A stretch of DNA of 64,000 bases. Source: an uncultured Chthonomonadaceae bacterium. Lineage in GTDB: Bacteria; Armatimonadota; Chthonomonadetes; Chthonomonadales; Chthonomonadaceae. Shown in pieces: positions 1 to 21,383 of this stretch. The notes below the pieces were generated by a model, which ran no database searches, was not told the origin of the DNA, and saw only the letters and a program-made list of their open reading frames with translations. A program made the position numbers and the translations under genes. Location: positions 1 through 64,000 of the forward strand of contig CAWIEK010000057.1 in the NCBI GenBank assembly GCA_963835065.1. The letters are read 5' to 3'. Each line of letters opens with the position of its first letter. The stretch's first letter is position 1.

Positions 1-38
1 AACCATGATTGGGCATGATTTAGAGGATTAGCATGATT
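1..38. repeat. Partial arm of 9-10 nt-period repeat (ATGATT/AGGATT), related to the AGGATT module of the intergenic palindromes
   Basis: aaccatgatt-gggcatgatt-tagaggatt-agcatgatt; compare 56733-56768. Confidence 0.5.
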
Positions 39-93
39 GAGGAGGCGCGTTTATTACAACCTCCTTCGAGTACCATAACAAGGAGGAACCCTG

Positions 94-372
94 ATGGAGT
101 GGGTACACGAAATCGTCGGCGGAGAAACTTATGAATATCTACCGTTGGGACAGTATGTGGTTCGGGCTGTGGGCGTATGCGGCGGACGGCCCACGTTCAA
201 GTACACGCGCATCGAGGTCGCCGGTACGCTGGACCGGGTCGCGGCGGGGGAGAGTATGGACGCGATTGCAGCCGGGTACGGCGCGCGCGTTCCGCGTGAG
301 GCTGTACAGGAGGCGATAGACATCGCGACACGTCATTTTTTGAACAGCCTGCCGGAACTTCGCGCCGCCTGA
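94..372 (+). CDS. DUF433 family antitoxin-like protein
   Basis: GVCGGRPTFKYTRIEV..GES..IAAGY DUF433 pattern; AGGAGG RBS; directly upstream of a PIN-like gene. Confidence 0.85.
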   Translation: MEWVHEIVGGETYEYLPLGQYVVRAVGVCGGRPTFKYTRIEVAGTLDRVAAGESMDAIAAGYGARVPREAVQEAIDIATRHFLNSLPELRAA

Positions 373-384
373 TGAGGACAACCG

Positions 385-807
385 ATGATCGTGCTGGACG
401 AGCAATTGACAGGGCGCGGTATTGAAGAAGCGATTAAGCGGTGGTATCCGGGCGCAGTACGCTTCATCAACGAACTGCGCCCCGGTACAATCATCAAAGA
501 TGAAGCCATTCCCACGCTGCTCAATCAGGAAGCCGAACCGACCTTCGTTACGATCAATGAAACAGATTTCTGGCGCAAGGTGGCAATCACCACGCGCTTT
601 TGTGTCATCTGTATTGCGTTGCCCGACAATCGCGCAACAGACATTCCTTCACTGCTTCAGCGGCTCCTGCGCCATCCTGATTTCGACACGAAAGCGCGTA
701 GAATGGGGCGCGTTCTACGCTTGACACTCTCAGCCGCCGCTTATTACACCTGTGATGATAAAACCGTCAGACCGGTGGAGAACTGGCAGGCAGATGACAC
801 CGGATGA
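385..807 (+). CDS. PIN-like (DUF5615/VapC45-like) toxin
   Basis: MIVLDEQL start, KDE, FVTINETDF acidic PIN-like motifs; paired with DUF433. Confidence 0.7.
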   Translation: MIVLDEQLTGRGIEEAIKRWYPGAVRFINELRPGTIIKDEAIPTLLNQEAEPTFVTINETDFWRKVAITTRFCVICIALPDNRATDIPSLLQRLLRHPDFDTKARRMGRVLRLTLSAAAYYTCDDKTVRPVENWQADDTG

Positions 808-856: not shown

Positions 857-2943
857 ATGACTGATAAACCCCGTTCGGCGCAGATCGCGCATGTGTTGTT
901 TCTGGACATTGTGGGCTATTCCCGCGAAACGACGGGGATGCAGAGCCAGATGCTCAGTCGGCTCAATGCCGCCGTGTCCGCTTCCAAAACGTTTGCGGAT
1001 GCGTTTGCCGCCAATGCCGTGCAGCCGATCCCGACGGGCGACGGCATGGCGCTGCTGTTTTACAGCGACGTGATCGCGCCCGCGCAGTGCGCCATTGACG
1101 TGGCGCGGGGTTTGCAGGGCGGTACGACAACCCTGCCCGTCCGCATGGGACTGCACAGCGGACTGGTGCAGCGCCAGATTGACATTACGGGCAAGAAAAC
1201 GTTGTCGGGGAAGGCATCAACACGGCGCAGCGCGTGATGGACGTGGGCGACGCGGGGCATATTCTGCTGTCCATGCAGTACGCCAACTGGCTCCAGCAGT
1301 TCGAGGATTGGGCCGGCCATATTCAGCCGCTCGGTGAAAGCGCGGCCAAGCACGGGCAGATTGTGCATTTGTACAGCCTGTGTTCGGGTGACTTCGGCAG
1401 TGCCGCGCTGCCTTCGCGGATGCAGGCCGCGCCGACTGCCCCTGCCCCTTCCCCGGCTTCCCAATGGGCCACCACGTCCCAATCCCAAACGCAAAAAATC
1501 GCCCTGCTGTACAAGCCCAACCAGCAGCCGGACGAAAAAGTATTGCGCATTTTGGAGGAACGCTTGCGCGAAAGCGGGCATGAGGTGTTTACGGATAATC
1601 AGACCAAAATTACCGCGAATTGGGCGACAACTATTGAAAACCGGATTCGCGCCGCCGATGCCGTGATTGCCATCGTGTCACCCCCCTCCCTGCAAAGCGA
1701 AATGTTGCAATACGAGATCGAAACCGCCCACGACCAGTTGGCGCGGACGACAAAGCCCATCCTGCTGCCCGTGCGTATCGGCAATGACGACGTGCCGGAG
1801 GGGGTGATTGCCACCCTGATTGCGCCCTACGCGCAGTTTACATGGACGGACGAGCAGGACACGCAAAAACTGCTGGCGGAACTGCTGTCGGCCATTGCCG
1901 AACCGCTCAAGCCGCGCCAGGAAGACGTAAAACTGGAACCTGTTGGCGGAGCCGTGCCGCCCGATTCGCCGTTTTATGTGCAGCGGGCCTGCGATCAGGA
2001 GTTCATGCAGGCGCTGCAAAATCAGGAAAGCATTCTGCTGGTCAAGGGCGCGCGGCAGATGGGCAAAACGTCCCTGCTGGCGCAGGGCGCGAAGCAAACC
2101 AAAGAATGGAACCGGCGCGTCGGCATGACCGATTTCCAGAAACTCAACTCGTCGCAAATGGCTTCGGAGGAGAATTTTTATCGCCTGATTGCCGCCACGC
2201 TTGCCCGGCAGTTGAAGTTCAAGTATGATTTTGAGGCCGAGTGGGACGCGATTTTCGGCGCGAACCTGAACATGGAGAACTTTCTGCGCGAACTGCTCGA
2301 CAGCGCGGACGAACCCCTTGTCTGGTACATGGACGAGGTAGACAAACTGTTTCTGGCTCCGTTCGCCAGTGACTTCTTCGGGCTGGTGCGCTCGTGGCAC
2401 AATTCGCGCTCGACGGAACCGGACGGTCCGTGGAACAAACTGACAGTTGTAATCGCGTATGCGACGGAAGCCCATTTGTTCATTCAGGATTTGAACCAAT
2501 CGCCGTTCAACGTCGGGCGGCGCCTGGATCTGGAAGATTTTAACATGCAGCAGACCGTAGACTTGAACGGACGCTACGGCAGTCCGCTGAAAAGTTACAA
2601 TGAAGTGGAAACCCTGCACGGCTTGATTGGCGGGCAGCCGTTTTTGACGCGCCGCGCCCTCGATGCGCTGGCGACCGGCAAAATGGACTTGAACACGCTG
2701 AATGCGCAGGCGGCGCGGGATGACGGCCCGTTTGCCGACCATCTAAAACGGCTTCTGGTGGCGGTAACGCGGCTTCCGGCTGTGGTGGAGTATGCGCGGG
2801 GCCTGCTGTCCGGCAATCCGCGCAGCGATCAAGACTCGTACTACCGGCTGCTGTCGGCGGGCATCATCAAGCAGACGCGGGAAGGCAAAGTGACGTTTCG
2901 CTGCGACCTGTACCAGCGCTATCTCGAACAACACGCGCTATGA
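857..2943 (+). CDS. Class III nucleotide cyclase-TIR-AAA_35 NTPase fusion, split by a 1-nt deletion near 1195
   Basis: VLFLDIVGYS, PTGDG, RMGLHSG in ORF 857. Adding one base at ggcaag^aaaac restores (E)NVVGEGINTAQRVMD into ORF 1234. TIR: EVFTD..ADAVIAIVS..SEMLQYEIE. Walker A GARQMGKT, Walker B WYMDEVD, LNQSPFNVG. Confidence 0.85.
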
Positions 2944-3051
2944 TAAAACAATAAATTAGCGGCAAACAAGCAGGAGAATTCCATCTTCGGCTAGAATATA
3001 AATCGCAAATTCACCATACGAACACCTTTAGCCAGAAATGAGAACGATTGT

Positions 3052-5283
3052 ATGTCCACACAGGAAGTCGCGCTGGAAAATTTGAATCCCGGCGCGAAAC
3101 GGCTCGTGCAGGCCGTGATGCAGGCGGCGGGAGAAACCGCGCCGGGCGCAAACCAATGGCTGACCGCGCTTTTGGAGCGGCATGGGCCGATGGCGGAAAC
3201 CCTCGCCACGTCCCTCGACGCCGCAACGACGCTTACGTATACCCGAACGCAGATTGCCGCAGGGCAGGCGGGGCAGGCGCTCGCCCCAAACGCGCTTGTG
3301 GAGCTGGCGCTGCAAAAAGCGAAAGCGCGGGGCAAAGACATCGCAAGCGAGCGGGACGCCGCCGCCGTGATTTTGGAAGCGGCGGGGTATACGCTCCAGG
3401 CCCCTGCCGATGTTCCCTTATCGCCGCCTGCTCCTGCCACAGCAACGGCGGCGGAAGAAGCCGGTGCTGCGGGAAACGCGCCTTCTGCGTGGAAGCCGAA
3501 AGCGAAGCGTCCCACGCCCACGCTGGCGCGGTTCGGGCGCGATCTCACGCAGGCGGCTTTTGAAGGCAAATTGAGCGCGCTGGTCGGACGGGAAGAAGAA
3601 ACCACGCTTGTCGTGGAAACCCTGTGCCGGCGCACCAAGCGCAATCCCGTTCTGGTCGGGCCGGCGGGCGTGGGCAAAACGGCTATTGTGGAAGGGCTGG
3701 CGCGGCGCATTATTGCCGGGGCCGTTCCCACCCTGCTGCAAAATTCCCGCGTGTTTGCCATTCAGCCCTCGACCTTAATTGCCGGTGCGGGGTACGGCGA
3801 TCTGGAAAAGCGCCTGGAAGCCGTTGTCTCGGAAGCCAGTCAGGACGGGATTCTGCTGTTTATTGACGAAGTGCATGCCATTGTCGGCGCGGGCGGACGG
3901 GCGGGCGCGGACGACATGGCGAGCCTGCTCAAACCCGCGCTGGCGCGCGGCGAAATCGCCTGCATCGCGGCCACTACGGACGACGAGTATCGCCGCTTCA
4001 TCGAAACCGACGCGGCCCTGGAACGGCGCTTTCAGCCCCTGCGCGTTCACGAACTCAGCGGGGCGCAAACGCTGGAAGTGCTTGGCGCGTTGCGCGACGA
4101 GTTTCAGCAGGCGCGGGGCGTTGCCATTTCCCTGGACGCCCTGCACGACATTGTGGCCTTTGCCGAGCGCTATATGCCCAACCGCCATTTTCCCGACAAG
4201 GCCGTAGATTTGCTGGAGCAGGCCGTCGCCCACGCGCTGGCAACCGGCCAAACGGAAGTGACCCGCGCCGACGCGATGCTGGTGGCGAACCGGCTGGTGG
4301 GCATGCCCCTGTCCGGCGAGGGCTGGGAGGACGCGCTGCGCCTGCGGCTGGAAGCGGAAGGCGTTCTGGCTCCCGAAGACACTTCCCTGCTGATAAGCCG
4401 CCTGCAGGTGACGCTGGCCGGTTTCGACATTCACCCCGCCCGTCCCAACGCCCTTGTGCTGCTGACCGGCGAAGCGGCGGCAAGCGGGCAAATGCTGGCG
4501 GGCATCCTCGCGCAAACGCTGTTCGGGAGCGAAGACCGCATCGTCACGCTGGATTTCAGCCGCTACACCGAACCCCACCACGTCAGCATGTTGATCGGTT
4601 CGCCGCCGGGCTATGTCGGCTACAGCGAGCATCTGCCCATCCACGAGGTTGCGCGTATCCCCTGGTGCGCCCTGCTTTGCACCAATCTGGACGCCTGCCA
4701 CCCTGTCGTGCGCGACGTGCTGACCCGCGCCCTGGAAACGGGCTTTCTCACGGACGCGCAGGGCAAGCGCCTGTATCTCAGCGACACCATTACAATTTTG
4801 ACCACGAGCAGCGGCGCGCTCCCGGAGCGCAAAATGGGCATCCGCGTCCACGACAAAGCGGCGCAGGAAAACCATAAGGAAGACGAGCGGGCGGCGGCGA
4901 CGAAGATGTTGGGAGCCGATCTCGCGCGCCTGTGCGATGTTATCAGCAGCCACGCCGGGGGCGCGGAAGCCAACGCGGACAGCGCGCATCGGCGGCAGGA
5001 AGCCCTGCTGACGGAACTCGGCAAGCGCTACGGTCAGCGTGGCATGACGGTGCAATGGAATGACAGCGTGTACGCCTGGCTGGACGCGCGTTCCGGGCGG
5101 GCAAACGCGGACGAGGAGTGGGAGCGGCTGGTGGACAACGATCTCAGCCCCCTGCTGGTGGCGCATCTGGCAAAGCGCAAAAGCACGGAACCGGTTTCCG
5201 TGCTGGTCGAGTACAGGGACAACGCCCTGCAAATCATACCCCGCACAATCACCTCTCACGATGAGGAAGAGCAAAGGAGTTAG
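3052..5283 (+). CDS. ClpA/ClpC-like AAA+ ATPase with degenerate second AAA domain
   Basis: NBD1 intact: [44 protein letters not shown]2 keeps GSPPGYVGY, but Walker A reads GEAAASGQ and Walker B reads LLCTNLD. Confidence 0.85.
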
Positions 5284-5286
5284 TCA

Positions 5287-5733
5287 ATGGAATTTTCAAC
5301 CCCGGCCGTGCAGGCGGCCTACGAGCGCATCGCGCCCATGATGAAAGAATTGTTCGGCGAATTCGTTTCCACCGATCCCAATATTCCCGCCTTCGGGATT
5401 TCGATGGGGTCGGCGTATGCGCAGATCGCCGTGTACGCCTGGGGCGACAACGACGCCACGCTGCGTGCCTGGTCGTGGGTGCTGACGGGCGCGGAAACCA
5501 CGCCGGAACTGATGCGCTACCTGCTGGATACGAACGCCAACATCCGCTTCGGCTCGTTCGGCATGGACGAAGTGGGCGACATCCTTTTCCAGAACACGAT
5601 TCTGGCCGCCACCTGCGACAAGGAGGAACTGCGCGCCACCATCATGGCCGTCGTCTCCACCGCCGACCGCGTAGACGACGAACTGGTCGCCAAATTCGGC
5701 GGACAGCGCGCCATTGACCGCGTTGCCTCGTGA
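5287..5733 (+). CDS. YbjN-like (T3SS chaperone-fold) protein
   Basis: TPELMRYLLDTNANIRFGSFGMDEVGDI..TCDKEEL..ADRVDDELVAKFGG; starts 3 nt after the Clp stop. Confidence 0.8.
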   Translation: MEFSTPAVQAAYERIAPMMKELFGEFVSTDPNIPAFGISMGSAYAQIAVYAWGDNDATLRAWSWVLTGAETTPELMRYLLDTNANIRFGSFGMDEVGDILFQNTILAATCDKEELRATIMAVVSTADRVDDELVAKFGGQRAIDRVAS

Positions 5734-5863
5734 GTTGTCTGGAACCATGACTCGTCTTATGGTACTGCTGCGTGTAACCGGATTATAAAAATCCGGTTAC
5801 GCAGGCCTTCGGCCAATCGTCCTGCGGACGAAAGAACTACTGGCGCATTTACGCCGCAGTGTA

Positions 5864-6109
5864 CTAGCGCAAACGCTGTAACAGGTACATGAGAATAACT
5901 CCCAAAATGAAGATTATGACGTGTAACTCCATACTGGTATGAAGGAGCATGGAAGCGCGTGGAAGACGATGTTCTTTCATACTTTGCCGCACAGCGCGTC
6001 TCCCGAACTTGACGAAATACATGATCAGGCCGACTAATTGCAGGAGAATCGCTGTAATTGTTAGGATGAGTAGTACGCACATGTAGATTATCAGGGTAAT
6101 ATTCTGCAT
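5864..6109 (-). CDS. Small 2-TM hypothetical membrane protein
   Basis: AGAGGA RBS before ATG; two hydrophobic segments; AT-rich. Confidence 0.45.
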   Translation of the reverse strand: MQNITLIIYMCVLLILTITAILLQLVGLIMYFVKFGRRAVRQSMKEHRLPRASMLLHTSMELHVIIFILGVILMYLLQRLR

Positions 6110-6164: not shown

Positions 6165-6602
6165 CTAATCGCCTCCCACAGACGCTCTTACCAACTGTTC
6201 CTCATGCCTCTCCTCACCTGCTTCTGCGGCTCTCAGCAGCACGGTCTGTTGCGCCTGCACCGGCTCTGAGGAAGCGCGTACCAGACTGTCAGGGGCGGGC
6301 AGGTCGGCGGCGTTAGCTCGAGTGAGGGGAGCGCCGGTTTGAATTTGTTTTGCCGCTATAATGGTTTTCCTTCCAATCTCCCGAAAAACAAAACTGAAAC
6401 TAACCGCCATGAGGAATAAAGCCCATTTTACAAAGGGAGCCAAAGCAGAGTGACGGACGAAAATGATAGAAGTCAAAACACCTATCATTAATACGGCTAT
6501 GAGGTTGAAGACGGCTCCCATTGACCACAAAGAAGCCTTCTTACTCATCAAAGCCGCATACACGCCCTTGCTCACAATGCGCTTGCTCGTTTTTGGCTCC
6601 AT
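6165..6602 (-). CDS. Hypothetical 2-TM protein with LVRAS/LLRAA C-terminal motifs
   Basis: AGGAGG upstream of ATG 6602 (MEPKTSKR); two TM helices; DSLVRASSEP..VLLRAA..EQLVRAS tail. Confidence 0.7.
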   Translation of the reverse strand: MEPKTSKRIVSKGVYAALMSKKASLWSMGAVFNLIAVLMIGVLTSIIFVRHSALAPFVKWALFLMAVSFSFVFREIGRKTIIAAKQIQTGAPLTRANAADLPAPDSLVRASSEPVQAQQTVLLRAAEAGEERHEEQLVRASVGGD

Positions 6603-6802
6603 CCCTGCGCCTCCTGTCTCTGCCCTTGTACTGCTATTCTTTTTCCATTCGCCATCGCTCACCAAACTCCTGCAAATGCCCCGTAATGATTTCACGCGCC
6701 CCAGATACGAATGTAAGCGCCTTTCACGGTAAAGCCAGTAATTGATGCTACGAATAGGTATAGCACAGCGCTTGAACTCCACAAACCTGCCAAACACAAT
6801 TT

Positions 6803-14107: not shown

Positions 14108-15982
14108 ATGAAACCACTCGCGTTCCTTCGCGTTCCGACGCGGCTATCTTTGTTCTGGAAACGACGCCGGGATTTGCTCTTGGGCAGCCTGGTCGTCGCG
14201 CTGGTTGGGTTCCTCACGCCCTGGCTGAACCAACGGGCGGTAGTGAGTCAGGTGGCGTGGGAGGTGTTCGAGCGGTTTTATAAAGCGCGCGATGTCCGTT
14301 CGATTGAGAACCGGGTTGCCGTTATCGCCGTAGACGATGAAGCGTACAGCCATTTCGAAATCAAAGAGCCGCTGTCGCGCAAGTATCTGGCCGGGTTGGT
14401 TTCCACGCTGTGCCAGAACAGCCATCCGCAGGCAATTGGCATTGACGTGCTGCTGGACGCGCCTTCTCCCCCCGGCCACGAATTTGAAGATGATATGCTG
14501 GAAGAAGCCTTACAGCTTGCGCAGGCGCGGCATGTGCCCGTCGTGATTGTCTGCAATCCCGAACCCGCAACGAATGAACCGCCGATTTTCCCTTTGCGCC
14601 GTTTCGCGCAGTGGTGCGATGTGGGCCATGCGCTGCTGCGCAAAGGCGAGGGCAGCGCGGGCGGGGAAGTGCGCGAGGTAGATTGGCTCAAACCGTTTCA
14701 ACAGCAGATTATACCGGCGTTTTCCGCGCAGATTGCGGCGCGTACACAGGGCATCGGCGCGGGCGAAACCGAAGCGTGGGTGCGAAAAACCCTGCGCCCG
14801 CGCCGCGAATTCAGTCCCTACTTGTTCTTCATACCGAACGATGTTATCAAGTTCGCTGACATTCCCGCCGATGAGGTTGTACCGGAAAATTCAGCCGCGC
14901 TGCAAAGTTTTGACAACAAAATCGTTTTAATTGGGGCAACCGCCAAAGCCAGAGGCGACATACTGCAAGCGCCCCTGCGGCTGGAAAAATATCCTGAAGG
15001 CATGCCGGGGGTGTTCGGCCATGCGTTTGCCGTGACCACACTGCTGGGGCCGGGGCTGACGGTTCCTCCCGCCTGGTTCGAGTCGGGGCTGTCCATGCTG
15101 CTCGGCGGCCTGTTCTTGTGGATGCTGTACCGTGTTGGCAGCGCGCGAACCTTTATTTGGTCTGCCTTTGCGCTGTGTCTGCTGGCGGCTGTCACCCTGT
15201 TGCTTTGCTGTTTTACCGGTGTGCTGCTGAACTTTATCCCCTCGCTTGGCGCGATTTTCATTTGTGGTCTTGTCTGGTGGTATCGGCGCAAGCGTTATCT
15301 GAACGCCTGCTACGAATCGTTTCTTACCCGGCCTGTTGTGCGCGGCATCGGGCAGGTGAACGATATAAATGCGTTTCGCTCTACAACCGCGCCCGGCAGC
15401 ATCCTGTTTTGCGATCTTATCGGCTACAGCAAGGCGTGTCGCCACCTGTCGCCCGAAGAAGCGATTCGGCTGGTCAACTACTATCTGTCGCCCGTTGCCG
15501 ACATTGTACAGCAGTATGGCGGCATTCTGGACAAGTATCTGGGCGACGGCTGCTTCGCCTTTTTCGGCGTCGGCACGTATGGCGAAAAGTCGCTTTCCCC
15601 TGCCGCCGCCGCGCTCAACGCCGCCCGCGCCGCGTGGCGTATTCATCAGGAAATGGAAACATTGCGCACTCAGGCGGCAGCCAACAACGTGCCCGAACTG
15701 ACGCTCAGTATCGGTATCCACACGGGGCCGCTGACAGCGGGACTGGTCGGCCCGGAAGGCCGCAAGCAGTTTACTGTCATTGGCGACTCGGTCAACGACG
15801 CCTGCCGCGTGGAAAGCATCGGGCATCAAACCGGCGTGACCCCGCCCTTCACCACCCGTATTCAAGTCTCAGAAGCCGCCGCCCACCTGCTTGCTGGCGT
15901 CGCCGTTCTGGAGTTAAAAAACTATACGCCCACGGAAAAATACTCTGCGCCCATCTTTGAACTGCAAAACCTTGTGGATTGA
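14108..15982 (+). CDS. CHASE2-domain membrane adenylate/guanylate cyclase
   Basis: CHASE2 (VAVIAVDD, IGIDVLL, KIVLIGAT, PGVFGHA), 3 TM; cyclase ILFCDLIGYS, DKYLGDG, FTVIGDSVNDACRVES. Confidence 0.93.
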   Translation: MKPLAFLRVPTRLSLFWKRRRDLLLGSLVVALVGFLTPWLNQRAVVSQVAWEVFERFYKARDVRSIENRVAVIAVDDEAYSHFEIKEPLSRKYLAGLVSTLCQNSHPQAIGIDVLLDAPSPPGHEFEDDMLEEALQLAQARHVPVVIVCNPEPATNEPPIFPLRRFAQWCDVGHALLRKGEGSAGGEVREVDWLKPFQQQIIPAFSAQIAARTQGIGAGETEAWVRKTLRPRREFSPYLFFIPNDVIKFADIPADEVVPENSAALQSFDNKIVLIGATAKARGDILQAPLRLEKYPEGMPGVFGHAFAVTTLLGPGLTVPPAWFESGLSMLLGGLFLWMLYRVGSARTFIWSAFALCLLAAVTLLLCCFTGVLLNFIPSLGAIFICGLVWWYRRKRYLNACYESFLTRPVVRGIGQVNDINAFRSTTAPGSILFCDLIGYSKACRHLSPEEAIRLVNYYLSPVADIVQQYGGILDKYLGDGCFAFFGVGTYGEKSLSPAAAALNAARAAWRIHQEMETLRTQAAANNVPELTLSIGIHTGPLTAGLVGPEGRKQFTVIGDSVNDACRVESIGHQTGVTPPFTTRIQVSEAAAHLLAGVAVLELKNYTPTEKYSAPIFELQNLVD

Positions 15983-16011
15983 CGATTGACGATTTTCGAT
16001 TGCCGATTGGG
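15977..16011. repeat. Unpaired heptamer arm (GATTTTC/GATTGAC) at the CHASE2 stop
   Basis: gattgacgattgacgattttcgattgccgattgg. Confidence 0.75.
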
Positions 16012-16030
16012 GATTATCAGTCAGTGACAA

Positions 16031-17008
16031 TCAAGCAGAAGGTTCCTCTGTTTGATTGTCTTCAACGAGATTTTCGGCGGCAGTGTTTGTCCACGTCAGG
16101 CTTTGGTGATTCCATGCCTGATGGAACGCGACATTGCCTGCCGCCGCAGAAAGTAGTGGCATCAAAAAGGAAATAAGCAGGTTTATAATCGCTTCAAACG
16201 AGGGTGTTTGATCGGCTGGCAGATTGCTTTTGGATACAAACTTCTGCCACTGAGCTTTGTTACTGGCATCCTCATAGTACGCAGGTGTGAGAGCAATGGG
16301 AAGCTGTGAAGGCAATTCCGTTTCCCGGCGCTCGAACGTGGCGGCAACTGCTTCCGCCAACAGCATACCGTCAAAATCAAAATGCGTTGCCAGATACCAA
16401 AGGTCATAAAAGTCCTTCAATCGGCTGTTTGCTAACGCCAATTTCACCATTGCCTGACACTTCTCCGCGACAACTGTTTCGCGTGGATACGTGAGCATCT
16501 TTGCGGCAGGCATGGCAAGCAGGGTAGGCAGTTCGGCTACCTGAGCCGCAGGGGTAATCGCGTCCCCAAAGCCTACATCTACCTGAACCGGTATTGTGAT
16601 CCCACCAAGTTTAGCGGTTAGTTTGATACGAACACCTTCGTATTCTTCTCCTTCCTTAATGATTGCTCCTGTGACTGTTTCGGGCAAGTATTGAAGGCCG
16701 TCGTCTTCAACAGGCTCCTGACAAATCTGTTTAAACACATCTACGATATGAGACGTTTGTGGATTACCGTGACCAAGCAAGTCAAGGTCGCGCGTAGGTC
16801 TGTGTACTTCTCCGGTCCAATGGGCAAATAGGGTCGCTCCTTTAAGAACGAAACCTTGCGTATGAGTTGACAAACTGAGACGATAGAGCAGGCGCTCGTT
16901 GGCATAGCGTGTCAGCACCAACTGAAACTCCTCTTTGCGTTGTTTGCTGATTTGAAGCAGACGCGCACTAACGGATGCTGCCATATTGCGCGGACGTTCT
17001 GTACTCAT
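16031..17008 (-). CDS. abiEii: AbiEii-family nucleotidyltransferase toxin (type IV TA)
   Basis: ERLLYRL, FVLKGAT, RPTRDLDL, QVDVGFGD, TVVAEK, NSRLKDFYD. Confidence 0.93.
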   Translation of the reverse strand: MSTERPRNMAASVSARLLQISKQRKEEFQLVLTRYANERLLYRLSLSTHTQGFVLKGATLFAHWTGEVHRPTRDLDLLGHGNPQTSHIVDVFKQICQEPVEDDGLQYLPETVTGAIIKEGEEYEGVRIKLTAKLGGITIPVQVDVGFGDAITPAAQVAELPTLLAMPAAKMLTYPRETVVAEKCQAMVKLALANSRLKDFYDLWYLATHFDFDGMLLAEAVAATFERRETELPSQLPIALTPAYYEDASNKAQWQKFVSKSNLPADQTPSFEAIINLLISFLMPLLSAAAGNVAFHQAWNHQSLTWTNTAAENLVEDNQTEEPSA

Positions 17009-17607
17009 ACAAGCGCCTCCAGATAGGGTTTCATAACGCTAATGATGTGAACTTTCGCAGCGTACTGCCACAACTCGTCCATTGTGGCTCTTCGTTCGCG
17101 CCAACATTCGCGCAATGCTTCAAGAGCCACTTCCAGCCCGATTTTGTTTCGATAGCGGAAACAGTCGGCTACTGTTTTAGGAACGTTGTACACGCGAACA
17201 ATACCCTCCGGCGCTTGATGTTCTTCAACACCCAACGACAACGCCTCTCCCGAAAACCGAACAATCTTAACAGGCGGGTAGTCAATACGGGGCAGATGCG
17301 ATTTTGGATGTACTGCCATCCAGACTTGATGTGGGCTTTGCGTTCCAAGATTATGAAAGCGCAACGCCGTCAGGAGACACAGAACTCCATTAGGAACTCT
17401 TTTGCATACCTCAGCAAGCGAGTAATTTTCTGAAATTTCCGCATCGGAAAGAATGTAGATGCCACGTCCTGAACGTTGCATCTGCCCGCCCTCATAGAGA
17501 CGTTGAAGATACACAGAGGGGATGTTTAGTTCCCTCAAGTCTCGTGGACGAATCATTCCCTGCTGACGCGCAAGTTGAATTATCTGCTCTGTGCGATCTT
17601 TGCTCAT
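17005..17607 (-). CDS. abiEi: AbiEi-family antitoxin / autorepressor
   Basis: wHTH RSGRGIY, CLLTALRFH, KTVADCFRYRNKIGLEVALEAL; 4-nt overlap with the toxin. Confidence 0.92.
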   Translation of the reverse strand: MSKDRTEQIIQLARQQGMIRPRDLRELNIPSVYLQRLYEGGQMQRSGRGIYILSDAEISENYSLAEVCKRVPNGVLCLLTALRFHNLGTQSPHQVWMAVHPKSHLPRIDYPPVKIVRFSGEALSLGVEEHQAPEGIVRVYNVPKTVADCFRYRNKIGLEVALEALRECWRERRATMDELWQYAAKVHIISVMKPYLEALV

Positions 17608-17674
17608 TGTTCTATAATGTCGTTAGTTAGGTTTGTCTACCGACATTATAGAACAACTCGGCTCTGCTTGTCTA
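17607..17674 (-). promoter_or_regulatory. abiE promoter with a perfect 16-bp inverted-repeat operator
   Basis: TTGTTCTATAATGTCG (17607-17622) N18 CGACATTATAGAACAA (17641-17656); minus strand TAGACA-N18-TATAAT. Confidence 0.8.
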
Positions 17675-18295
17675 GGGAGAGCAGCATTGGTCGTAGCAGG
17701 CGCAAGGCTGGGAGGTGCGCCATGCCCAGCCGCTGTCGCCATAGGACCAGTGCCACCATTCTTCGGGGTAGTTGGAAAATCCGGCGTGTACCATAGCGGC
17801 GAACAGCATTTGACGGTGCAGGGCGGCTTGGGGAGAAAGGTGGGCGTAATCGGCGCGGGTTGCGGCAAGGGTAAACGGCCCCATGTCGGCGCGTTTGCCC
17901 TGCGGCGTGAGCAGGCCGACATCTACGGCTCCACCTGTGGTATGTGGCGGCGGAGCGAGTGTGTCGGATGCGGCCACGTATTTATTGGCGGCATCATGGA
18001 CGTAAGCGCGGGAGCGGAAGGGATGCAGCAGGCGGGACACGCAAAGAGCAATGTGAAACAAACGCGCCTGCTTATCGGGACTGCGGTACGCATCGCCTAC
18101 GCGCAAGCGATAGCCGGGATGATGAATTTCCAGCCATGCCTGCGCATCATTCAGCCGTTGTGCCGCGCCGGAGCGAAGATAGAGGGGGCGCGTACCGACT
18201 TCTACATTGGGGCAAAATTGGCGCAAATCCACCAGCGGTTCGCCACACTCCACAATAGGAACCCGGTCTAAATCGGCTATGGTTTCGGTAGGCAT
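17672..18295 (-). CDS. D-Ala-D-Ala dipeptidase (peptidase M15D, VanX-like)
   Basis: VGDAYRS, PPHTTGGAVDV, NYPEEWWHWSYGD; start taken at MPTETIADL. Confidence 0.9.
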   Translation of the reverse strand: MPTETIADLDRVPIVECGEPLVDLRQFCPNVEVGTRPLYLRSGAAQRLNDAQAWLEIHHPGYRLRVGDAYRSPDKQARLFHIALCVSRLLHPFRSRAYVHDAANKYVAASDTLAPPPHTTGGAVDVGLLTPQGKRADMGPFTLAATRADYAHLSPQAALHRQMLFAAMVHAGFSNYPEEWWHWSYGDSGWAWRTSQPCACYDQCCSP

Positions 18296-18306
18296 GAAAC
18301 CGTTGC

Positions 18307-20196
18307 TCAGTTCTTTTCGTGTTCCGGCTTGAGGACGCGGAAGATGGGAGCGGATGTTTTCAGGGGCATTGCGCCTTCTTTCCAGCCTTTGCGCGGCATC
18401 ACGAAGCAGTGGTCGCGGGGCACGAGCAGTTCTTCCTCGCACCAGCCGTCTGTGATAATCATCACGGGCGCGGAGGCGGGAAAGTCCGGGCGGTTGAGCA
18501 GGTAGTTGATGGCGGGCTGCAAAACGGTTCCGCCCCGGCCCTGCACCGGGAAAATGCCGCGCAGATCGGTAGGACACAGAAAGCCCCGGTCATACGGCGC
18601 GGCGTCGCACAACACCAGGCGGACGGCAGGCACTTCGCGGGCTTCGGCATACGAAGCAATCGCGCCCAACGCCCGGCCCAAAAGTTCCCGGTCCATCGAG
18701 CCGGACGTGTCCAAAACCACGCCGAACGTGCAGGCGTCGCGCCACTCCTGCGGCATATAACGGGCGGGGCGCGGTATGTCGGGCGTGGACGCCTGCCGCC
18801 GAGACGCGCGGGCATACGAGCGCAGGCTTTCGCGCACAATGGGAACGTGCGCGTCCATCCACTGCGCCAATTCTACGTCCCAGGGCACGGGCGGCGTGAA
18901 CAGGGATTTGATTTCTTCAATCAGGCCGGCAGGCATTGTGCCGCGTCCGTAGTGCTGACAGGCCAGCCCCGACGCCATGCACCGCCGGTACACATCGTCC
19001 AGCGTGGACACTTCGCCCCGGTAAATGCGCCGCTCGTCCAGCAGCACGTCGCCCTTTTTGCCGCCGAAACCAACAAGATTTTTGCACTTACGCGGATCGC
19101 GTCCGAGCAGGTCATACACTTCTTCCGCCGACATGCCTTTCAAGCGCGGATCGTACAAGCCGCCGATACGCGGAAACTGCCCGATTCCCATTTCCACCAG
19201 CCAGCCGTTTATTACAAAATCAGCGGATAGATTCCAAAGGTACGGGTCACGGCCCTGCAAGCGGGCATGGTGCAAAAGCGCGACGTGCAGCAGTTCGTGA
19301 ACGTACACGAACAACACTTCCTCCTGCGACAAGCCGCGCCCCGTGTGGAAATAGATTTCGCCCAACCCCGCGTTTACGGCTGCGACGGGAATGTCCATGC
19401 GGTCGCACATCGCGCCATCCGCAATCACCCGGAGTTGCGCGGCAAGCGCCCCTAAAAGCGGCAGTTCGTTCATTACCCAGCGCTTGGCGTTTTCTAATGG
19501 ACGCCACGTTTTATTGCGCTCCGTTTCCGCCACTCCGAGCGTTTCCGCCGCTTCCTCTACCGCTCGTTCCACGCCCATGCGGATGCCTTCCGCCAGCAGC
19601 ATTTCATAATCGCGCCTGTCTCCGCCCCGCTGATACAATTCGCCGATGGAGCGGGATACGGAAGCGCGGGGTTCGCGGCGCACAATGTCCGAACGCCCCG
19701 CGCCCGCATACGTTTTCACATTGGCAAGCGCCCGTTTGTCCTCGGCAAGCAGGTCGTAAATGGCGGTTTCCGTCATGCCGATGAAGGCCGTATCTACGCC
19801 GTAATCGTGCGGCGCGTGTCCCAAACGCAACGCGAGGGCGAGATTGTCTGAAGCGTGTTCGCAGGCCAGCGTCCATAGCAGGGCGTGTTTGCCAATTGGA
19901 GCGTCGCCGTGTCCCAAACCAATATGCAGCAGCAAATGCGCGAGAATAAACGTCCACTCCGCTTCGCCCAACTCCTGCCGCCGATGCGGATTGACCCACA
20001 GCGCGTTGGCAGACGGCGACACGCACCCGATAGACACGTCACTGTCTGACTCGTCACACTCCAGCAAGGTCACGTTTGCCAGAAGCGGCGACAGCACGGA
20101 GCGGTGCAGTTGCGAACACGCGCCCCGTATCTGCAGCCGCGTCCGCGCCAGACGGTCTTCCTTATGCTGTTCTTTTTGTTTGCGTTCCTTGCTCAT
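18307..20196 (-). CDS. DUF2201-type metallopeptidase-like + vWA protein with duplicated N-domain
   Basis: First repeat HLLLHIGLGH, second repeat HELLHVALLHH..WNLSAD; vWA VLDTSGSM, GRGGT, IITDG. Confidence 0.88.
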   Translation of the reverse strand: MSKERKQKEQHKEDRLARTRLQIRGACSQLHRSVLSPLLANVTLLECDESDSDVSIGCVSPSANALWVNPHRRQELGEAEWTFILAHLLLHIGLGHGDAPIGKHALLWTLACEHASDNLALALRLGHAPHDYGVDTAFIGMTETAIYDLLAEDKRALANVKTYAGAGRSDIVRREPRASVSRSIGELYQRGGDRRDYEMLLAEGIRMGVERAVEEAAETLGVAETERNKTWRPLENAKRWVMNELPLLGALAAQLRVIADGAMCDRMDIPVAAVNAGLGEIYFHTGRGLSQEEVLFVYVHELLHVALLHHARLQGRDPYLWNLSADFVINGWLVEMGIGQFPRIGGLYDPRLKGMSAEEVYDLLGRDPRKCKNLVGFGGKKGDVLLDERRIYRGEVSTLDDVYRRCMASGLACQHYGRGTMPAGLIEEIKSLFTPPVPWDVELAQWMDAHVPIVRESLRSYARASRRQASTPDIPRPARYMPQEWRDACTFGVVLDTSGSMDRELLGRALGAIASYAEAREVPAVRLVLCDAAPYDRGFLCPTDLRGIFPVQGRGGTVLQPAINYLLNRPDFPASAPVMIITDGWCEEELLVPRDHCFVMPRKGWKEGAMPLKTSAPIFRVLKPEHEKN

Positions 20197-20318
20197 TTTC
20201 GATTGACGATTTTCGATTTTCGATTTTCGATTGTGGATTTCGGATTGTGGTTCGGCTTCTGTCTTCTGTCCTCTGTCTTCTTTTCTTCTCTTCTTCTTTT
20301 CTTCTTTTCTCTCCCCTG
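20197..20318. repeat. Hybrid repeat spacer; on the coding (minus) strand purine/GACAGAA arm after the stop and AAAATCG arm before the start
   Basis: (gattttc)n-gattgtg-cttctgtcttctgtcctctgtc-(ttttcttc)n fills the whole intergenic gap. Confidence 0.85.
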
Positions 20319-20321
20319 CTC

Positions 20322-21383
20322 TTACTTAACCGCTACGCGCTGTGCCAGGCGGGGCAGGTCGCGTACCACTTCCACGAGGAACCAGGGCGGCAGGTTGCGG
20401 GCGGAATCACCCATTTCTTCGGCTACCATCACCGTCGTCATTTCTACGCTGATGTCGCACAGGTCTACCAGGACGCGCTTGGCCTGCGTGACCATCTGGC
20501 GGTGGGCGGGGCGCACATCGTCGCGTTCCGGCGGCAGGGTTTTGGCGAGTTGGGCGCGAATGGACTGCACAATAAAGTAGAGTACGTCCCGGTCATCAGC
20601 GGCGCGGGGCAAAGCCTGTTCGCCACTCAGGATCTTTTCGATGCGCAATGTGCCCATCAACTGCTTGATGAACGCGCCGAAACTGCGGGCGTGGCTTGCG
20701 CTCAAACAGCCTGATGCCAGCATTTCGATCTCATCCGCGTTGACATCCGAACCGTAGGCAAGCAGGGCGTCGCTTAGAATGTGCCACGAGCGCGGTGTGC
20801 TGAACGTTTCCTCGGTTTTGGGCGGCTGCGCGGCCAGATGGTCGGGCCGAGTCTCGATGTAGCGGATAATCCACTCGTGAACGCCCTGCGCATACGCCCA
20901 ATCCAGCCAGTCGCGGGCAGTCGGCTTTAATTCGACGTGCAGCATCCGGTTCATCAGGGCGGACGACATGGGCTTGACAATCGCCTGATCCTGCGCCCGG
21001 TTACCGGCTCCGACAACAACCGAACCGGGCGGCAAATAATATTCGCCAAGCCGCCGGTCATTAATCAGGCTGTAGAACGCTTTCTGTACCTCGAACGAGC
21101 AGGCGTTGAGTTCGTCCACGAACAGCAGGTACGCATTGTCGCGGGCAATCATGCGGGGCGGGCAGAAAACGGAACGCCCGTCCTCAATGCGCGGTACGCC
21201 GATCAAGTCTTCGGGAGCCAGTTGCGAACCGAGCAGGGAAACGCAGTCCAGCCCAACATCCCGCGCGAACCGCTCGACAAGGGCCGATTTGCCGATCCCC
21301 GGCGGCCCCCAGATAAAGACCGGGCGCGTCATGGCGACATTGAGAAGCAGTTTGTTCAATTGAGGCGGTGTAATTACTTGCAT
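20322..21383 (-). CDS. MoxR-like AAA ATPase (partner of the DUF2201/vWA protein)
   Basis: PVFIWGPPGIGKS, LLFVDELN, VVGAGNR, SALMNR, TPRSW. Confidence 0.93.
   Translation of the reverse strand: MQVITPPQLNKLLLNVAMTRPVFIWGPPGIGKSALVERFARDVGLDCVSLLGSQLAPEDLIGVPRIEDGRSVFCPPRMIARDNAYLLFVDELNACSFEVQKAFYSLINDRRLGEYYLPPGSVVVGAGNRAQDQAIVKPMSSALMNRMLHVELKPTARDWLDWAYAQGVHEWIIRYIETRPDHLAAQPPKTEETFSTPRSWHILSDALLAYGSDVNADEIEMLASGCLSASHARSFGAFIKQLMGTLRIEKILSGEQALPRAADDRDVLYFIVQSIRAQLAKTLPPERDDVRPAHRQMVTQAKRVLVDLCDISVEMTTVMVAEEMGDSARNLPPWFLVEVVRDLPRLAQRVAVK

Follow-up and report, generated by a model that had tools for sequence, protein, structure and literature searches.

The window analysed here consists of the first 64,000 nucleotides of contig CAWIEK010000057.1 (C57), in the 8.0 Mb assembly of an uncultured Chthonomonadaceae bacterium. 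Near its start lie three genes in the same orientation. Gene 1 (857-2943) encodes a class III cyclase, a TIR domain and an AAA_35 nucleoside triphosphatase (NTPase) in one chain, gene 2 (3052-5283) encodes a Clp ATPase, and gene 3 (5287-5733) encodes a YbjN-like protein. The spacing is 108 nt between gene 1 and gene 2, and 3 nt between gene 2 and gene 3. An initial annotation, made from the sequence alone, had described this layout and the 108-nt gap correctly, and proposed a single nucleotide-signalling or defence module with a dedicated remodeller and adaptor. Our comparisons make it very likely that the window holds two separate units instead of one system. Our overall explanation, to which we give a probability of roughly 0.7, is that gene 1 (unit 1) would be the effector half of a paired immune switch built from signal transduction ATPases with numerous domains (STAND), and that genes 2 and 3 (unit 2) would be a one-motor Clp and its YbjN adaptor.

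We compared 46 loci of the Clp subfamily, 21 from Armatimonadota and 25 from other groups, of which 37 had at least 2 kb of upstream sequence. The 25 were drawn from 80 loci taken among the matches listed: 31 belonged to the subfamily, minus six duplicates, and the 12 inspected of the remaining 49 resembled housekeeping Clps. The AAA_35 set comprised 100 loci, namely the 20 best-scoring genome loci and the best 80 of at least 414 confirmed metagenome loci. Profile searches found no cyclase, TIR or AAA_35 domain at the Clp loci (0/46), and neither Clp nor YbjN at the AAA_35 loci (0/20 in genomes, 0/80 in metagenomes). A conserved three-gene system was rejected on these counts.

The distribution of the two units across genomes points the same way. 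Of 300 other Armatimonadota genomes, 20 matched a profile of the second ring of the Clp (D2) and 48 matched the cyclase-TIR part; G001 and G038 alone share both. In G001, which belongs to the same genus, the Clp-YbjN pair is located at C2:4.21 Mb, far away from the AAA_35 pairs, and the flanks of the locus in the window map nowhere near it. The Clp-YbjN pair is present in G038, G040 and G255, which have zero AAA_35 matches genome-wide. A second contig of the assembly (C58) contains a 98.2% identical copy of positions 857-5733; between the two copies, the synonymous divergence (dS) is 0.12-0.16 in the TIR and AAA_35 domains but 0.02-0.03 in the Clp. Because of the missing cross-occurrence, the separation in G001, the AAA_35-free genomes with Clp-YbjN and the unequal dS, we conclude that the adjacency of the two units is local to the source lineage. 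The source genome has 21 AAA_35 matches, so such an adjacency could easily arise by chance.

The domain content that the initial annotation had assigned to gene 1 was borne out in each part. The family profile of the cyclase matches solved class III cyclases (best E 7e-11), two full-length paralogues pass Guanylate_cyc in Pfam, and the cyclase domain of the C57 copy itself had no Pfam match. Both metal-binding Asp residues, the Asn and the Arg are invariant in 18/18 aligned homologues. The canonical base-selecting pair in class III cyclases is Lys/Asp or Glu/Cys; these positions read Ile and Asn in the gene 1 cyclase, and LipJ likewise lacks the selector Lys in the alignment. The putative catalytic Glu of the TIR domain is kept in 17 of the 18 homologues, and the ratio of nonsynonymous to synonymous divergence (dN/dS) of this domain is 0.02-0.09. 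The Walker A and B motifs of the NTPase are invariant among aligned gene 1 homologues. Pfam detected no C-terminal repeats in the gene 1 product, and no cyclic nucleotide monophosphate (cNMP)-binding domain in gene 1, its paralogues, or 13 'a'-type and 12 'b'-type relatives (types defined below). The predicted structure of the C58 protein (predicted local distance difference test, pLDDT, 87; predicted template modelling score 0.52) has the AAA+ core with helical/winged-helix extension that characterizes STAND proteins, and its fold matches include RPP1, SSO1545, PAB2304, Avs3/4 and Orc/Cdc6. The same cyclase type also occurs in L006:6468-7847, where it is joined to an FGE-sulfatase-like domain and both TIR and NTPase are missing.

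The AAA_35 genes are of two types. The 'a' type, to which gene 1 belongs, carries variable N-terminal modules (cyclase, TIR, kinase, CHAT, BTAD or trypsin) and is repeat-free; the 'b' type ends in WD40, TPR, NHL or PEGA, with a hydrophobic helix ahead of the repeats. A 'b' partner was found at 14 of the 20 genome loci of the gene 1 type and at 64 of the 80 metagenome loci, and three further metagenome loci have a cut WD40 gene directly upstream. The metagenome pairs are co-oriented in 60/64, and the Armatimonadota pairs have the 'b' gene upstream of the 'a' gene in 11/14. Walker A is kept in 80/83 'a' and 54/59 'b' domains, and Walker B in all. The first sequence on contig C58 is the linker found ahead of WD40 in 'b' proteins, and the WD40 part of C58 lies upstream of the cyclase gene; the sequence therefore places an AAA_35-WD40 partner of gene 1 just beyond the first base of the window. 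The initial annotation was thus right that gene 1 is repeat-free, and the sensor repeats are predicted to sit in this separate upstream partner, cut by the contig end. Another contig, C48, runs out within an AAA_35 'b' gene at a point matching the C58 start; the order fits a C48-C58 join, but the ends do not overlap and the join is unproven. Coverage of the WD40 part of C58 is low in four runs, to which we give no weight.

From these features, a two-gene STAND-NTPase immune switch is the likely setting of the cyclase-TIR-AAA_35 protein, which would be its effector half, and we regard an immune role for unit 1 as fairly probable. The repeats of the upstream AAA_35-WD40 protein would detect a ligand from an invader, and this protein would assemble with the cyclase-TIR-AAA_35 protein into an ATP-dependent ring. 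Clustering would trigger cleavage of NAD+ by the TIR domains and would dimerize the cyclases, which would then produce a cyclic nucleotide. Activation of the TIR domain would stem from assembly rather than from cNMP binding.

The product of gene 2 had been described as a half-degenerate Clp ATPase, and motif counts over 44 non-redundant members of its subfamily agree with this. The first ring (D1) has Walker A in 44/44, the Walker B DE in 44/44 and LxRRF in 41/44. D2 has GK[TS] in 0/44 and DE in 0/44, its Arg finger is gone, and the Y[VI]G pore loop is kept in 42/44. Among the best 150 representatives after clustering at 50%, GK[TS] is missing in 133 of the 142 that cover D2. The dN/dS of D2 is 0.10-0.27 in three pairwise comparisons, values that indicate purifying selection on this ring. 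In the alignment against the ClpC P0033 the middle domain is a gap. The structural model (pLDDT 86) has its best Foldseek matches to ClpC (E 1e-49 to 1e-40). The N-domain had no Pfam match, and hhalign aligned it to the ClpC N-repeat with E 4e-4 and a probability of 37%. The NCBIfam bit scores of the window Clp are far under the respective cut-offs for ClpA (335 vs 993) and ClpB (370 vs 1232). No type VI secretion system genes were recognised among the scanned part of the flanking open reading frames (ORFs). A search of the ESM Atlas with D2 returned ordinary ClpB-D2 clusters only. The source genome contains two clpP genes, one of them split.

Several relatives of the Clp depart from this arrangement. 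The sister Clps P0027-P0032, about 744 aa long, also lack the middle domain; of the two that were aligned, D2 is intact in P0029 and partly degenerate in P0027, and these two forms are possible steps toward the dead-D2 Clp. Within the subfamily, a beta-propeller replaces the N-domain in P0168, and P0245 has two D1-type domains. P0215, P0239, P0247, P0254, P0256 and P0264 contain ClpB-D2-type domains in tandem, two or three per protein, and the N-termini of most resemble signal peptides. In Desulfuromonadales/Geobacter, L084:7965-9722 and L093:7902-9713 encode Clps without N-domain and without YbjN. In L093 an N-domain-like ORF also stands by itself on the opposite strand (3011-3385), and the Clp lies between type III CRISPR genes (RAMP, Card1) and a Tubulin_2 gene.

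Gene 3, initially called YbjN-like, passes the Pfam cut-offs for both TY-Chap1 (60.1 vs 27 bits) and YbjN (45.3 vs 22 bits). Forty-one Clp loci could be assessed for the downstream gene; L027, L035, L070, L078 and L092 end too early and were left out. YbjN is located directly downstream of the Clp in 25 of the 41 (23 close, 2 divergent), and the carriers come from at least eight phyla: Armatimonadota, Chloroflexota, Planctomycetota, Sysuimicrobiota, Eisenbacteria, Krumholzibacteriota, Actinomycetota and Hadarchaeota. Among the 300 Armatimonadota genomes, all four close YbjN orthologues adjoin a Clp, and there are two weaker matches besides. In P0174, P0186 and P0237 the Clp is fused to a C-terminal YbjN domain; the two that were looked up are singletons. 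Met47 of the Clp N-domain is present in 24/24 proteins with a close YbjN neighbour versus 0/20 of the others, and Glu42, Arg43, Glu100 and Arg101 follow the same trend. L071 fits the Met47 split though it is nested among YbjN-bearing Anaerolineaceae.

Type III CRISPR genes lie near 4 of the 25 non-Armatimonadota Clp loci, and the other loci sit amid apparently housekeeping genes; given this mixture, unit 2 may or may not serve in defence. The Clp-YbjN pairs of L075 (archaeal), L082 and L088 are beside type III CRISPR genes, and in L088 YbjN flanks the Clp on both sides. In the related genomes of L025 and L032, a YbjN-less Clp is tail-to-tail with a Pup-ligase cluster and proteasome-like ORFs.

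We consider it probable, given the neighbourhoods, the fusions and the N-domain residues, that YbjN binds this Clp subfamily. The odds are about even that binding occurs via the Clp N-domain, and equally even that the one-motor Clp feeds ClpP. The wider proposal is tentative: YbjN/TY-Chap1 may be a new class of Clp adaptor, and its partner a natural one-motor Clp whose dead ring 2 is kept by selection as a grip and ClpP dock, with carriers from eight or more phyla, one carrier being an archaeon. A YbjN dimer with the fold of type III secretion system (T3SS) chaperones would bind the Clp N-domain and pass on a loosely folded client. The pull on the client would come from ATP hydrolysis in ring 1; ring 2 would hold it passively and would, in most members, also dock ClpP. 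The outcome would be a low-power unfoldase or protease partner with a narrow range of clients. The available part of PMC5398634 describes YbjN/T3SS-chaperone-type proteins as dimeric, and T3SS chaperones as releasing their clients via a separate ATPase. In the portion of PMC13125188 available to us, ClpE with a mutated Walker B2 retains partial degradation of casein and CtsR, and its pore loop 1 residue is Ile.

The two units each have a competitor to the function proposed above. For unit 1, the AAA_35 pair could be an ordinary, non-immune signal-transduction switch with cNMP output and the TIR domain as a scaffold. BTAD regulators are found on some 'a' genes, which allows for plain signalling; kinases fill the same slot, and the hydrophobic helix before the repeats of 'b' proteins, sometimes with PEGA, would suit such a switch as well. 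Further points count against immunity. No PADLOC system matched: the check suggested in the initial annotation gave only weak partial matches for unit 1 (E about 1e-5) and none to Pycsar, and PADLOC 2.0 has no system matching paired AAA_35 NTPases. TIR domains that act as NADases usually have Trp and Ser at two positions, which are Met and Leu here. The 'b' partner is lacking at 6/20 genome loci, four of them limited by contig ends. We nevertheless judge the signalling switch unlikely, given the retained TIR Glu and the expansion in the lineage with repeats that vary. The accessible part of a preprint (bioRxiv 10.64898/2026.08.12.744502) also assigns cyclases fused to STAND NTPases to a predicted immune clade, to which gene 1 may belong.

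For unit 2, the Clp could instead be an ATP-gated scaffold, holdase or ClpP sink, with YbjN as co-chaperone or client; D1 would set assembly, and the dead D2 would bind clients or occupy ClpP. D2 is usually the stronger motor in two-ring Clps, and here Walker A, Walker B and the Arg finger of this ring are gone throughout (44/44). The D1 pore loop lacks an aromatic residue in most members and is mostly aliphatic, and every single-ring mutant of ClpE was strongly impaired according to the sections of PMC13125188 at hand. These points weigh against a working one-motor Clp, as do others. GF stands at the ClpP-loop position in 34/44 members and is absent in 10/44, and the window copy reads MGI there; the available text of PMC12521514 states that S. 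aureus ClpC requires a ΦGF motif to bind ClpP. The Clp persists without YbjN, since 16 of the 41 assessable loci have none adjoining. The YbjN fusions are at the C-terminus of the Clp and not at the N-domain, and P0186 lacks ERHxxM. The Met47 split is inflated by kinship: a quick tree requires 5-7 changes, 2-3 of them forced at strong support. The scaffold is also the less favoured account and we think it doubtful, because the D1 catalytic motifs are invariant and the pore-loop Tyr of D2 is retained (42/44); a chain still threading the channel would explain both.

Two other alternatives concern the locus itself. A single three-gene system for defence or signalling, with the cyclase-TIR-NTPase remodelled by Clp and YbjN, has in its favour the co-orientation and the 108-nt gap, in which no terminator-like site was detected on the + strand (the promoter/terminator scan performed at chance level). 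C58 shows the same adjacency, and a contig of run X3 spans it, but these are near-identical strains, and the type III CRISPR genes near some Clp loci could be read in the same direction. Set against the empty cross-searches (0/46 and 0/100), the separate positions in G001, the three Clp-YbjN genomes without AAA_35 and the differing dS, the single system is very improbable. The neighbourhood check thus went against the dedicated remodeller of the initial annotation. Its ideas survive separately, as a STAND-type TIR/cyclase effector and a YbjN protein that is likely a Clp adaptor. A contig end and an expanded gene family can together mimic an operon.

As the initial annotation had recognised, gene 1 of C57 carries an indel: one base is absent at about 1194 and splits the frame, which would also be expected if gene 1 were a real pseudogene in the source strain. 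The base is present in C58, where the frame reads through, and in contigs from 3/4 sequencing runs. C58 has its own, private extra base near the start codon, missing from contigs of 2/4 runs, and the same assembly splits several gene 1 paralogues and one of the two clpP genes. For these reasons the frameshift is likely an assembly error rather than a true mutation, and the pseudogene is improbable.

Table 1. Coordinates of features at the start of the window, with the evidence for each.
Feature	Position	Strand	Evidence
Dispersed palindromic intergenic repeat, arm	1..78	.	95% match to C58:1968-2045
DUF433 protein, likely antitoxin; strain-variable, outside both units	94..372	+	Pfam E 3e-9; absent from C58
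Possible PIN-like toxin; strain-variable	385..807	+	Atlas leads; absent from C58
Class III cyclase domain (split at about 1194)	857..1431	+	Residues invariant in 18/18 homologues; solved cyclases matched
Cyclase residues: metal Asp, metal Asp, Asn, Arg	905-907, 1040-1042, 1219-1221, 1231-1233	+	Alignment of 18
TIR domain; putative catalytic Glu (YEIE) at 1714-1716	1492..1896	+	TIR_2 E 1e-16
AAA_35 STAND-type NTPase, 'a' type without repeats; Walker A 2047-2070	1948..2943	+	Pfam E 1e-76
Divergent Clp N-domain; ERHxxM (Met47 3190-3192) and ERD motifs	3052..3405	+	Helical, high pLDDT
Intact first AAA+ ring (D1), Walker A 3658-3681; no middle domain after it	3514..4305	+	ClpC alignment
Second AAA+ ring (D2) without Walker A (4459-4494), Walker B (4672-4695) and Arg finger	4306..5283	+	Motif counts
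D2 pore loop GYVG; ClpP-loop position MGI	4609-4623; 4834-4842	+	Alignment
TY-Chap1/YbjN protein, likely Clp adaptor	5287..5733	+	Pfam TY-Chap1 E 2e-16, YbjN E 1e-11

Positions 1-31000 of the window and C58 are strain-level duplicates with blocks that are 89-98% identical and inserts that differ; the assembly therefore carries two haplotypes of this region. The DUF433/PIN toxin-antitoxin pair, noted initially as lying upstream of gene 1, was confirmed for its DUF433 member. The PIN assignment is weaker: the 385..807 product had no Pfam match, and its Atlas leads (0.85-0.90) are to clusters with DUF5615 or PIN_10. C58 lacks the pair, and a WD40 gene takes the upstream position. C58 has a full inverted repeat with 45-nt arms between the WD40 partner gene and the cyclase gene, and in C57 the DUF433 pair sits between the first palindrome arm and the cyclase gene. 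The arm pattern had 16 matches in the genome versus 0 for the reversed control, and some arms of the element (C58:1959-2113) occur as facing pairs about 100 nt apart. The C60 paralogue also has a DUF433 fragment after it. Elsewhere in the window, 5774-5867 and 6165-6635 are two more multi-copy elements with many genome matches, and 14108-21383 contains a CHASE2-cyclase, an AbiEi/AbiEii type IV toxin-antitoxin pair and a MoxR and DUF2201 pair.

The Clp-YbjN pair is more novel than the unit 1 pair. In the open literature searched, which excludes subscription papers, nothing turned up on a Clp with dead D2 together with YbjN, nor any link between TY-Chap/YbjN and Clp. Structures of the YbjN family have been solved but its function is not agreed, and a conserved, sometimes fused AAA+ partner makes an adaptor role directly testable. 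The division of labour between the rings of class I Clps has been studied with engineered Walker B mutants, and the dead-D2 subfamily offers a natural ring-2 knockout under selection. No paper in the open literature described an experimentally tested AAA_35 pair, though Table S1 and Fig. 1A of the Pucsar preprint may include cyclase-TIR-STAND architectures resembling unit 1. Because PADLOC 2.0 holds no matching system, the paired AAA_35 genes are a defence candidate, with sensor and effector divided over two apparently active STANDs and cyclase and TIR on one chain.

Among known systems, unit 1 shares with Pycsar and Pucsar the pairing of a TIR domain with a class III cyclase whose Asp/Asp/Asn/Arg set is intact. 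It differs from them in having cyclase and TIR fused to a STAND NTPase instead of encoded by separate genes. The Pucsar and Pycsar TIRs are CNBD-TIR proteins in the part of bioRxiv 10.64898/2026.08.12.744502 available to us. Unit 1 as Pycsar or Pucsar was ruled out, because it has no cNMP-binding domain; its cyclase is not stand-alone, and PADLOC gave no Pycsar match. With STAND immune proteins (RPP1, Avs3/4, bNACHT, the MNS clade and nSTAND2) it shares the fold and the effector-NTPase-repeat logic, but unlike those with one chain it splits effector and sensor over two genes. The AAA_35 'a' and 'b' genes may correspond to Npun2340/2341 of Leipe 2004. An 'MNS clade (Npun2340/2341 family)' is named in PMC8195603 (Kaur 2021), and the 2 of 10 Npun2340 places available in its supplement do not show the cyclase-TIR-AAA_35 architecture. 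The same paper describes, in the sections at hand, nSTAND2 as a two-gene STAND operon with one inactive NTPase, fused to GT4 or HEPN; the unit 1 pair keeps Walker motifs in both NTPases. Available parts of PMC7159879 and of the bNACHT preprint served as background for unit 1 only.

The Clp of unit 2 shares with ClpC, ClpA and ClpE (adaptors MecA and ClpS) an N-domain and two AAA+ rings, the GYVG pore loop and the position of the ClpP-docking loop. These Clps likewise have a small partner protein, and that of the window Clp is YbjN-fold. In contrast to ClpA, ClpC and ClpE, ring 2 lacks Walker A/B and the Arg finger in all members of the subfamily, and in contrast to ClpC, ClpB and ClpE, the middle domain is missing. 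The window Clp scores far under the cut-off of the ClpV/TssH model TIGR03345 (378 vs 885). Gene 3 is above the Pfam cut-offs for the TY-chaperones, which comprise TY-Chap1 (PF22551), YbjN (AmyR, DR1245, Tll0839) and the class I T3SS chaperones, and it weakly matches the Tll0839 structure 2plg (E 0.002). TY-Chap1 is described in ADP-ribosyl-glycohydrolase systems in the portion of PMC9503650 available; the gene 3 family differs from known TY-Chap1 in being coupled or fused to a Clp ATPase.

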